DNA of 62,900 bases, the filler included, from Octopus bimaculoides (lineage: Eukaryota), in NCBI RefSeq assembly GCF_001194135.2. It is 2 parts of one record of this genome, joined end to end, with 100 filler letters (N's around TTAATTAATTAA, not from the genome) between each part and the next. Parts side by side here need not be neighbours in the genome. Positions count along the whole stretch, not along the records: positions 1 to 31,127 come from NC_068984.1; positions 31,228 to 62,900 come from NC_068984.1. One strand, written 5' to 3'. Shown in pieces: positions 26,776 through 36,180 of the stretch. Made by a program: the position numbers and the translations under genes. Position 1 is the stretch's first letter, and each line of letters opens with the position of its first letter. Below the pieces are notes generated by a model. It was not told where the DNA came from. It saw only the letters and a program-made list of their open reading frames with translations, and did no database searches.

Positions 26776-27503
26776 AATTTCAGGGCATGTTTTGAGTATA
26801 AAATAGATTATTTAAAATTAATGATGTAAGAAATAAATTTATTAATATTTATTTTTGTTTATTGATATTAATTAATGTAATTGTTGAAAGGTATGTATTT
26901 TTATAATTTCAGAGCATTTGCCTCCGAACGGTTAATATATTAATAAATTAAAATATTACCGTTTCTGACCGCTGAATATACCTTATTTTTTATCGTAAAT
27001 TCGAATACGCATATCGGATGTATTTTGTCGCAATTTTTGTAATTCTAAATTTGAATCGTTTTCTTCTAAATGTCGTATTCGCCCTTTACACCATTACCTT
27101 TCTTTTATCTTTTATATTTTATCGTTTATCTTTTACTTGCTTTAGTCAATGGATTGCAGTATGCTGGCGCACTGCTTTCAAAGGCTTAGTCGAACAAATG
27201 GACCCCAGTACTTATTTTTTAAGGCTTGGTACTATATTCTCTAGGTCACTTTTTGCGGAACCACTAAGTTACCGGGACGTAAAAAGACCAACACCATTTG
27301 TCAAGTGGAGGTGGAGCAAACACAAACATAAAAACACACACATAGATATATACATACGTAGTTTCAGTTCTAATTAAACAATATTTTACTCTACCGTTGG
27401 TATTTGAGTGCTATTTTCTCCAACTTCTTTTGCACCTATGTGCTCGCATATGTATGTATACATACATACATACATACATACATACATACATACATACATA
27501 CAT

Positions 27504-28077
27504 TTCTAAATCTCACTTTGAAGGTATGCATTTGCAATCCAGGAACAAGAAATATCAACCAAATACCTGATGCACAAAAAATACAGAAACGCAGAAAAAG
27601 CAGCAAAATGTGATAACCTATATAGATTTTGTGAAGTTAACACCGAAGATATCATTCACATCATAAGCAGTTGTCCGAAAATGTTATCACGGTATTATCT
27701 ACCGATCAGACATGATGTAGCTCGGACACTGTATAATGAGATCTGTCCAAAAGACAACTAAGAGGTCAAAGAAATAAAAACTTACGGTATAGTAGAAGCC
27801 ATATCCACTCATAATAAAAGGAGTACTGGTGGAATGTCCCAGTGAAAATCTCTCAATAAAATATAAACATAATAAACCTGACATAGTAATCTGGGATAAA
27901 GAAGAAAAACTGTGTACAGTTGTGGACATCAGCTGCCGAGCGGATGTTAACATAAAGCTAAAGCTCAGCGAAAAACGAAAATATCTATGTTGAACTATTG
28001 AGGAATTTACAGTTACTCTATCCAGATTACAAGTTCAGGTAGTTATTGGGGCACTGGGATATGTAACACACTGCCTA
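27504..28077 (+). mobile_element. R4/Dong-like non-LTR retrotransposon, 5'-truncated zinc-knuckle/RLE fragment starting directly after (CATA)n
   Basis: YAFAIQEQEISTKYL..RFCEVNTEDIIHIISSCPKMLSRYYLPIRHDVA..KEYWWNVPV..HNKPDIVIWDKEEKLCTVVDISC (zinc knuckle, RHD and PD-type nuclease). Confidence 0.85.
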
Positions 28078-29042
28078 CAGAACTTTGGCTGGAAACTATG
28101 AATAATAAAACCCGAATCCTTCATTCACACTATGCCAAACCTATGGCCTCCAAATACCTGATCCACCGGAACTCAGCTATCGCGGACAATGCCAAATTCA
28201 ATATATTGATGGCAGACCTCATCTGATTAATGAGAAATGTGTCCCGCATGTACGACCCTACAGAGTTAAAGAGACACATACAACATTTCGTTCACCGCAT
28301 GCAGTTCTCAGGATACAGCCATAGAGAAAGGATCAGAGTATACAAAGAGCCATGAGGAAATTTGAAAGTATCATACGTAACGATAGGAATGGGATTTGCC
28401 CACTCAGTAGGACCAAGTCATGGAATACCATTGAAAGGACTAAGAAGAAAATAGGGATGGCCAACGCCTGGTATGATAGCCACAAATACCAGAGTGTCAT
28501 ATTCGTCAAGAACAACCCCTAGAGCGAACTGGCGTACCGCTTTAGAAGGGCCCTAGACAAACTTAAACTAAGAATTAAGGTTGTAGAAAGGCCAGGCAGC
28601 CCTATCAAATCCCTTATCAGTAGAACCTACCCTTTTAGTAGAACCCCCTGTACTGATAGGAACTGTACTGTATGTAGATTTAGCCCACAAACAAACTGTA
28701 AAGCCAGGAATGTAATCTATAGTATAAGATGTACAGAGGGACGGTGCAGTAAGAAGACAACGACGTACGTAGGGGAAACAGCACGGAGCATAGGAGGGCA
28801 GGTAAATGAGCATTGGAGGGAACTTAAGGAAGAGAAGAGCTCATCGGTTCTGTACCAGCACGCCGAGCAGGAACACGGAGGCTCGCTCAACAACATAGAA
28901 GTTAAAATCTTGTCCACACATAGAACAGACGCAACGCTTAGGTCAAATTTCAGAAGCTACACACATAGAAGAAGATAAACCTAGCCTGAATAGGAAACTA
29001 GAATGGAACACTAGCACACATCCCCAAGACACCACAACCTAA
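28078..29042 (+). mobile_element. PLE (Neptune-like) 3' remnant: RT thumb, Cys-rich linker, GIY-YIG
   Basis: ILHSHYAKPMASKYLIHRNSA..RMQFSGYS..PCTDRNCTVCRFSPQTNCKARNVIYSIRC..TYVGETARSIGGQVNEH..EATHIEEDKPSLNRKLEW, with a few stops and frameshifts. Confidence 0.85.
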
Positions 29043-33432: not shown

Positions 33433-34349
33433 ATCATCATTTAGTTTATTTCAAGATTTCTTGCCAATAGAGAAAGAATCGTTTTCTAACCTAGATCCAA
33501 GATTCCTTCATTGGAATTTCAACAACACAACAATGTATATTTGTTTGTATGTATGTATGTATGTATGTATGTGTATGTATGTATGTGTATGTATGTATGT
33601 ATGCATGTATGNNNNNNNNNNNNNNNNNNNNNNNNNNNNNNNNNNNNNNNNNNNNNNNNATGTGTATGTGTGTATGTATGTATGTATGTATGTATGTATG
33701 TGTAGATTTGTATGTCTTATGTATTTATTCTCATGCATACCGTTACATATCTAGACATGCTCATATATATTCAAATGATAAACTTCTGGAAAGTTTTACA
33801 GATTTTTACAGTTCCAGTGATGGATTGGATCCGCAGGGCAGCTAATTTCCACAACTGTGCACAGTTTCTCTTCTCTATCCCAAATCATTATATCAGGACT
33901 GTTGTGCTTCCATTTTATTGAGGTCTGCACTGGGACATTCCACCAGTATTCCTTTTTATTATGAGTGACTATAGCTTCTACCATATTGTGGGGTTTTATT
34001 TCTTTGTTTTGGGGATTATCCTTCCAACGGATTTCATTATAGAATGTCCTAGCTACAACGTCATGTCTCATCGGTAGATAATACCGTGATGACATTTTCG
34101 GACAACTGCTTTTGATGTGGGTGATATCTTCAGTTTGAACTCCACGAAGTCTGCATCGGTTGTCACATTTTCGACTTTTCCTGCATCTCCATCCCTTTTG
34201 TGTATCAGGTACTTGATCGATATTTCCTGTTTGTGGATTGCGAACGCATACTCTTCAGAGAGGAAGGTAGTAATCCGGCTATTCGTCCATGATAAACTGC
34301 CTTGATGATCGATGTTACTATCATCACGGAACTTTCTACTAACATATTC
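33433..34349 (-). mobile_element. R4/Dong-like element, 5'-truncated and internally deleted, flanked by (CATA)n on both sides
   Basis: The minus strand reads catacatacat|EYVSRKFRDDSNIDHQGSLSWT..AIHKQEI..RYYLPMRHDVV..WWNVPVQTSIK..SPDIMIWDREEK, then the same 3' UTR as 31228-31609, then |(cata)n. Confidence 0.85.
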
Positions 34350-36180
34350 ATGTATGTATGCATGTGTGTGTGTGTGTGTGCATGTGTGTGTGTGTGTGCA
34401 TGTGTGTGTGTGTGTGTGTACATGTGCGTGTATGTGTGTGTGTATGTGTATGCGCGTGCGTGCATTTCTGTATGCGTTTGTGTTTGTGTTTGTTTCTCCT
34501 GCTGCTTCACAACCGGTGTCGGATTGTTTCCATTCACGTAATTTAGCAGTTCAGTAAAAATTATAATACAATAAGTACGAGACTGAAAGCCTAAAATACT
34601 GGAGCCTATTTTTTCGACTAAAACCCAATGACGGAAACAAGAAAAAATTAAGATAAAATGCGAGAGACAGACAGACAGAAAAACAGACAGACAGACAGAC
34701 AGACAGACAGACAGACAGACAGACAGACAGATAGATAGAGAGATAGAGAGATAGATAGATAGAGAGATAGATAGATACTGATTGGTTATACTTATAAACT
34801 GAAGATGGTTCTGGAGAACAGAAACTCCCAGATATGCCACGATACACTAATGTACCGCAAAATTTCACTGGGTCAGTCGTGAACAATGTAAGGCTATATA
34901 TTAAATATGTGAATAATGCTAAACTATGCTAACTGACACTCAAATTCTAGGGTTTGATGAGCATGTTCCATTGATGTAATATAGAAGTAGTTAATTTTCT
35001 GTATCTTCTTTTTTTTTATCTTTTACTTGTTTCAGCCATTAGTCTGTGACCATGCTGGAGCATATCCTTGAAGAATTTTTAGTCGAATGTATCGACCCCA
35101 GTATTTACTTTTTATAAGCTTGGTACTTATTCTATCGGTCTCTGTTGCCGAACCACTAAGTTACGTGGATATAAGCACACCAGCACTGATTGTCAAATGG
35201 TGATGGTGAGCAAACACAGACAGACAGACAGACAGACACACACACACACACACACACACACACACACACATATATATATGCATATATACGACAGGCGTCT
35301 TTCAGTTTCCGTCTACCAAATCCACTCATGAATCTCTGGTCAGCACGAGGCTACAGTAGAAGACACTTGCCCAGGGAGCCACACAGTGGGTCTAAACCCG
35401 GGACCATGTGGTTGGGAAGCAAGCTTCTTACAACACAACTATTTAAATTATTTTTATATATTTATTGATTACAATATACAGATAAAAAAAACAAGTAAGT
35501 AAATGGGTGGAAGTCGAACCGGCGAGTGTGTTAATTAATAAGGTATTAAAACATAAGGACTCTCTCCTGTACTTCCAGTAATATTATATTATTATAGCAT
35601 TAAATGCAAATTTGCAATGTCTCGTATTTAGGGAAGAGAGACTGTAACTTGGCTGGTTTGTTCAGAGTGCCGTTGCATCATGTACGTTGCAATAATAACA
35701 AACCACTTAAACCAGTTGCAATCAATTTCAAATTCGCATATTAGTCCCAATATCTTGAATGCATTTGGTGTACTCCAGCGCTATTGGTTAAATTCAACAA
35801 GTTCGTGAACAGTGTTCGATGTTTTCTCTGCGCATTCACTTCCGTACGATTTCCTTGTACAAGTATTATTTCGTGCCCGTCTACACACACACACATACAC
35901 ACACACACACACACACACACACACACACACACACACACACACACACACACACANNNNNNNNNNNNNNNNNNNNNNNNNNNNNNNNNNNNNNNNNNNNNNN
36001 NNNNNNNNNNNNNNNNNNNNNNNNNNNNNNNNNNNNNNNNNNNNNNNNNNNNNNNNNNNNNNNNNNNNNNNNNNNNNNNNNNNNNNNNNNNNNNNNNNNN
36101 NNNNNNNNNNNNNNNNNNNNNNNNNNNNNNNNNNNNNNNNNNNNNNNNNNNNNNNNNNNNNNNNNNNNNNNNNNNNNNNN

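Follow-up and report, generated by a model that had tools for sequence, protein, structure and literature searches.

The window, a stretch of 62,900 nucleotides of Octopus bimaculoides DNA, consists of two parts of contig C4 joined by N filler at 31128-31227. It contains three fragments of a retrotransposon, here called family 1, which the first-pass annotation had assigned to a single family; all three indeed align to one working consensus of about 4.04 kb. They are dead copies of an abundant single-ORF RLE retrotransposon of that length and of the Dong type. The fragments and their surroundings are the following.

27458..27503, plus strand: (CATA)n tract bordering fragment 1 where its 5' end is truncated, likely a remnant of the target
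27502..28077, plus strand: fragment 1 of family 1, CCHC knuckle and RLE core (working consensus 3118-3705, 83.6%)
31228..31609, plus strand: fragment 2 of family 1, end of the ORF and 3' UTR (consensus 3657-4040, 94.5/90.8%)
31444..31499, plus strand: internal CATA-rich tract of the fragment 2 3' UTR, the element's own
31610..31687, plus strand: (CATA)n at the 3' end of fragment 2
33237..33316, minus strand: right half of a host SINE, on the 3' side of fragment 3 (75%, E 1e-11, against the SINE copy at 32979-33145)
33336..33432, minus strand: (CATA)n at the 3' end of fragment 3
33434..34355, minus strand: fragment 3 of family 1 (consensus 3037-4040 with a deletion of 3564-3771, 93.4/96.1/89.9%)
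34351..34449, minus strand: short CATA run and CA tract at the 5' junction of fragment 3, the internal microsatellite of the SINE
34477..34621, minus strand: left half of the same SINE, on the 5' side of fragment 3 (69%, E 8e-9)

Fragment 1 is truncated at the 5' end and broken at 28077 at the 3' end, and about 7 filler bases separate its element sequence from the CATA tract at 27503. The left edge of fragment 2 (31228) is the joint of the two parts of the window and no biological end. Fragment 3 is placed within the internal microsatellite of the SINE, whose halves lie on either side; its own internal CATA tract is expanded (33533-33728) with an N gap inside, and its 5' junction shows a CATA run of about 3 units (34351-34362) with a 4-base microhomology (CATG) to the element. 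The initial description of four junctions abutting CATA stands for both 5' truncations and both 3' ends, with the qualification that the run at 34351-34362 is short and that the filler intervenes at 27503. The CATA tract described within the 3' UTR of the element is real.

Directly after fragment 1, positions 28078-29560 contain a broken ORF with the end of an RT and a GIY-YIG-like segment (YVGETARS, which we take to be a GIY-YIG-like motif), for which Pfam gave no match; this probably represents a Penelope-like element by which fragment 1 had its 3' end cut or replaced. Just before the joint, at 30971-31064, there is a 39-base tandem repeat with a GATC core.

The genome has a size of 2.34 Gb and is rich in microsatellites. 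The 34-base 3' motif of family 1 has 724 exact matches in it. Copies were gathered by genome searches as 3' copies, 5' copies, middle copies and 20 long stretches; out of the first 100 motif matches listed 70 were retrieved and 69 used as unbiased copies, one overlap being dropped. Family-1 copies have a variable 5' truncation and a fixed 3' end, and for the most part match the working consensus at 85-97%. A 110-base exact pattern matches only 4 copies, so that few copies are very young. Contigs from runs of five related organisms (B-F) pile up on the element as well.

Read across frameshifts in a pile-up of copies, the ORF encodes about 1,200 residues with, in this order, an N-terminal Dong-type block, RT, CCHC, RHD and the RLE motif, and is followed by a 3' UTR of about 210 bases including the internal CATA tract. 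Pfam recognised RVT_1 in a real copy (E 5e-7) and, below cutoff, zf-RVT (E 4e-4). The translated pile-up contains CRLC..HIISSC, RHD and RPDI..VEISCP, the last being the RLE motif, and the solved structures best matching the relative P0007 are R2 proteins. This is the layout of RLE-type non-LTR elements, with RT followed by CCHC and a PD-(D/E)xK-type endonuclease in one ORF without APE. A conserved N-terminal block, W..E.N...CY...Y.......HP, aligns with insect Dong-like proteins, and Pfam detected no Myb domain in five full-length relatives or in the L096 piece. At the 5' end, the UTR folds into hairpins; Rfam found no ribozyme family at 8 loci with 5' ends, which are decayed copies, and returned only microsatellite-driven or sub-threshold matches. 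A length-variable (AGT)n run, encoding poly-serine, is present in the N-terminal coding region of L036, L059 and L103.

Two peculiarities concern the 3' end of the element. Among the 69 unbiased copies (L111-L180), 22 start within the internal CATA tract, which is likely a truncation hot spot giving SINE-like stubs of 130-180 bases. Of 161 3' ends, 10 (among them L069, L111, L113, L119, L129, L158, L184 and L243) are followed by a head-to-tail repeat of the terminal 105 bases, which run from the internal tract to the tail; the nested cases make up two of the ten.

The placement in R4/Dong proposed from the window holds by protein anatomy and by tree, as far as unnamed insect Dong-like proteins can serve as the reference set. 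In quick, midpoint-rooted trees, made without bootstrap and without named reference proteins, family 1 belongs to a subclade with SH-aLRT 100, sister to the insect Dong-like proteins, and both together form one clade (SH-aLRT 99) apart from Ulp1-bearing NeSL-like proteins. RT identity of family 1 to the insect proteins is 33-36%. Protein searches returned unnamed relatives at 49-59%, with no protein named Dong, R4 or Rex6 among the matches listed. A metagenome scan added 52 loci, of which 18 were checked for tracts and 15 placed in the tree. Eleven of these contigs group with family 1 in the subclade and 8/11 end in (CTTA)n or (CATA)n: seven have (CTTA)n at one or both ends (L185, L186, L188-L191, L200), and tracts are found at both ends in L188 and, as (CATA)n, in L187, while L192, L193 and L205 have no tract. 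The contigs with CTTA belong to two name series and may stem from one host or a few; they do not count as seven independent cases. Close relatives flanked by CATA or CTTA are about 52% identical over the RT-RLE region. Contigs of the sister group (L198, L199, L203) end in TAA or TAAA; an order of TAA first and CTTA/CATA afterwards is a reading of the tree and not a test.

In order to compare the 5' flanks with the genomic background, copies were picked on element sequence alone, and a junction was scored as CATA if at least 2 units lay within 25 bases upstream. Not counted were copies beginning within the internal tract (22 of the 69 unbiased ones) or past it (4 of the 69), junctions close to an N or to the edge of a locus, and three loci that were duplicate or self. 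CATA is present upstream of 75/106 truncated 5' junctions within the coding region, a set taking in a few younger-subfamily copies, versus 283 of 20,842 background windows (1.4%). By copy set the counts are 22/30, 1/2, 19/28 and 33/46, and 16/20 near-full-length 5' ends also have CATA. The signal is confined to the sense strand, since antisense CATA (TATG) occurs at none of 126 5' junctions, including the 106 truncated ones. Other motifs at these 106 are rare (CA 5, TA 3, AGAC 3, TAA 0), and the background per strand is 1.4% for CATA, 1.6% for CA and 2.8% for TA. The remaining 31/106 truncated junctions are without two CATA units within 25 bases. At intact 3' ends two CATA units are found in 102/132 and one unit in 124/132, and at broken 3' ends CATA is found in 1/23, that one being a real terminus (Fisher p 2e-9 versus 5' junctions). 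The 5' flanks of truncated copies, which had been singled out as the decisive comparison, are thus strongly enriched in a strand-specific manner.

Related families in the same genome have similar junctions. An older family, about 70-75% alike to family 1, has CATA at 12/27 truncated 5' junctions, and a younger subfamily, about 80% alike to family 1 and 96% among its copies, at 22/24. The share climbs with youth from the older family through family 1 to the younger subfamily (p 0.013, 0.038), which fits a strict preference blurred by decay. Microhomology to CATA in family 1 averages 1.94 versus 0.80 (0/5000 simulations), counted on the 32 cleanly abutting of 104 junctions; for the young subfamily the figure was not significant (1.0 versus 0.8, 10 junctions, imperfect reference). 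No target-site duplication in unique sequence was found outside the tracts: in sets of 112 and 24 insertions the candidates did not exceed 8 bases, and those of the 112 insertions match shuffled pairs.

Some insertions bear on whether the tract came first. Two family-1 copies, at L082 and L137, are each interrupted within their internal CATA tract by a young copy, which is 72-75% alike to the host body, and continue on its far side. As the young copies are nested in the internal tracts of older ones, those tracts existed first. Furthermore, 12/30 young copies adjoin, through a CATA tract, a like-oriented fragment from another Dong-type family, and by a rough estimate spots adjoining such fragments make up well under 1% of the genome. 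Among the young copies L305-L334 another Dong-type fragment is found far more frequently downstream (11) than upstream (2). At the start of contig C1, 15/20 long CATA loci have no family-1 copy within about 600 bases, which means that free targets abound; 5/20 carry family 1, and so does one further long CATA locus there, L111.

L122, like fragment 3 of the window, interrupts a SINE at its internal microsatellite, and both SINE halves are present. The CATA of L122 is on the strand where 0/9 empty SINE middles carry CATA, and could have arisen at or after insertion. Six other copies (L003, L008, L021, L126, L152, L172) have a SINE half on one side only, so that flanks are often not an intact pre-insertion site. 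Empty sites in related organisms were sought at L009, where contigs of runs X13, X14, X18 and X19 cover the orthologous flanks, and at L181, covered by contigs of X13, X14, X16 and X20 (in both cases about 92-94%), and none of these contigs bridges the insertion. A search for empty paralogues through host repeats gave two-sided matches for 3/125 insertions and no clean empty site. Two candidates were rejected: L238 is no duplicate of L114 and is another family-2 copy, and the repeat upstream of L029 is no interrupted host and is a 5'-truncated RTE.

An RTE-like LINE with C-terminal C2H2-type motifs and TA/TATG tails (L029, L139, L310, L270-L284) has TA/TATG at several truncated 5' ends and shares tracts with Dong-like copies, on the opposite strand. 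Microsatellite-flanked junctions are therefore not unique to the Dong-like element.

Taken together, the sequence data point to a Dong-type RLE element that is bordered at its 5' and 3' junctions by sense-strand (CATA)n and whose likely mode of insertion is the cutting of (CATA)n tracts already in place, a reading to which we give a probability of about 0.85. The suggestion that the family targets (CATA)n draws its support from the enrichment in the 5' flanks and from the nested insertions, which used pre-existing tracts. This specificity is common to several families in the genome and, with CATA or CTTA, to the wider subclade.

There is a small chance that sites are chosen loosely in AT-rich or alternating purine-pyrimidine sequence and that RT itself makes the CATA at both ends, by slipping on the tail when synthesis begins and by switching back to an RNA that ends in CATA when it finishes. 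The RNA has CATA internally and probably at its tail too, L122 has CATA on the unexpected strand of the SINE, 10/106 truncated copies come after the 3' end of another copy, and the 105-base terminal unit is repeated past 10/161 3' ends, the last two being what template jumps would give. Synthesis by RT sits poorly, however, with the lack of a unique TSD enclosing the tracts, with L082 and L137, where the tract used belonged to the host sequence, and with the 12/30 young copies that abut more diverged Dong-type fragments, for which the tract was pre-placed unless all families were active together. Neither are CA and TA repeats, at least as common in the background, enriched likewise.

Insertion could also have been unspecific, the link with CATA arising later by survival or recombination trimming at tracts or by joins in short-read assembly. 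The assembly is fragmented with many gaps at microsatellites, and flanks are often not colinear. This is very improbable and already largely refuted, given that secondary breaks are without CATA (1/23), that the signal is one-stranded (0/126 antisense) and strongest in the youngest copies, that a join at a tract cannot create junctions of CATA to coding sequence at dozens of different positions, and that relatives in other assemblies have the same layout.

For insertion by cutting of existing tracts, the biology of R2 and Dong suggests a course of events. The endonuclease would nick the TATG strand, and the nick would prime reverse transcription on RNA ending in CATA. A second nick would also fall inside the tract, making any target duplication invisible, and joining of the cDNA end to the CATA upstream would often use 1-5 bases of microhomology. 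The CATA tract within the element itself would serve as a truncation hot spot as well as a target for later copies. A shift from TAA to four-base targets is suggested by the use of (CTTA)n in other hosts by the same branch.

In a wider reading, towards which we lean only slightly, an undescribed R4/Dong subclade switched from TAA to four-base microsatellites, (CTTA)n or (CATA)n depending on the host. Successive families in the octopus would have kept CATA, carried a copy of it in the 3' UTR, stacked in each other's tracts and come to occupy about a quarter of the long CATA loci.

The class of mechanism itself is already known. How RLE retrotransposons gain new target sites is an open question, of use for the engineering of R2-type insertion tools. 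The CTTA/CATA pair, one base apart, would if true be a natural test of a change in RLE specificity, and relatives flanked by either motif could separate the roles of N-terminal domain, endonuclease and RNA tail. Part of the microsatellite load of the genome is also explained (5/20 of the sampled long CATA loci), and insertion callers and CATA-based markers will misbehave at such tracts.

Among known systems, an octopus 'Dong-R4' class with 51 families and 92.7 Mb in O. vulgaris is listed in the supplement of PMC13282606, and for O. bimaculoides a passage of PMC9115989 mentions a Dong consensus that lacks recent activity. Family 1 is probably among these annotations. In the passages covered (PMC8967140, PMC13282606 with supplement, PMC9115989), neither a target site nor a CATA flank is given. 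Among the PMC and bioRxiv entries listed, there was no R4/Dong element specific for CATA or CTTA; such a target may already be recorded in Repbase or Dfam, in Kojima and Fujiwara 2004 or in Fell et al. 2025, which lie beyond this coverage.

Outside the clade, a passage in one of our sources (among PMC8967140, PMC13586686, PMC10294476, PMC3747384, PMC13282606, PMC3812793, PMC4640811, PMC3774820, PMC7998251, PMC9115989) gives (CATA)n as a repeat at the 3' end of some L1 families of green algae. RLE elements that target microsatellites include Togen ((TG)n, NeSL-related) and some HERO families (excerpt of PMC4640811). They differ from family 1 in clade and motif, and the Ulp1-bearing NeSL-like proteins fall outside the family-1 clade. 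WaldoAg1, WaldoAg2 and WaldoFs1 target ACAY microsatellites (excerpt of PMC3812793), and ACAT is a rotation of CATA. Waldo differs in being APE-type (R1 clade by the cited title) and unrelated, so that a target shared with an RLE-type element would be convergent.

The closest comparison is with Dong itself. Dong of Bombyx mori, DongAg, DongBg and an ostracod Dong target (TAA)n (excerpts of PMC3812793 and PMC7998251), the R4/Dong clade has an N-terminal diverged Myb/SANT-like block without zinc fingers (excerpt of PMC7998251), and Dong carries an HDV-like 5' ribozyme (excerpt of PMC3774820). Like this clade, family 1 has a single ORF with RT and RLE, the N-terminal W..E.N...CY block and microsatellite at both ends, and, judged from sequence, appears to insert into a microsatellite. 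In contrast to Dong, family 1 has TAA at 0/106 truncated 5' junctions, abuts (CATA)n and belongs to its own subclade with relatives flanked by CTTA or CATA. As to a ribozyme, Rfam finds none at the decayed 5' ends of family 1. The target preference is real and well supported, in a known kind of element, and is here extended to a subclade with four-base targets.
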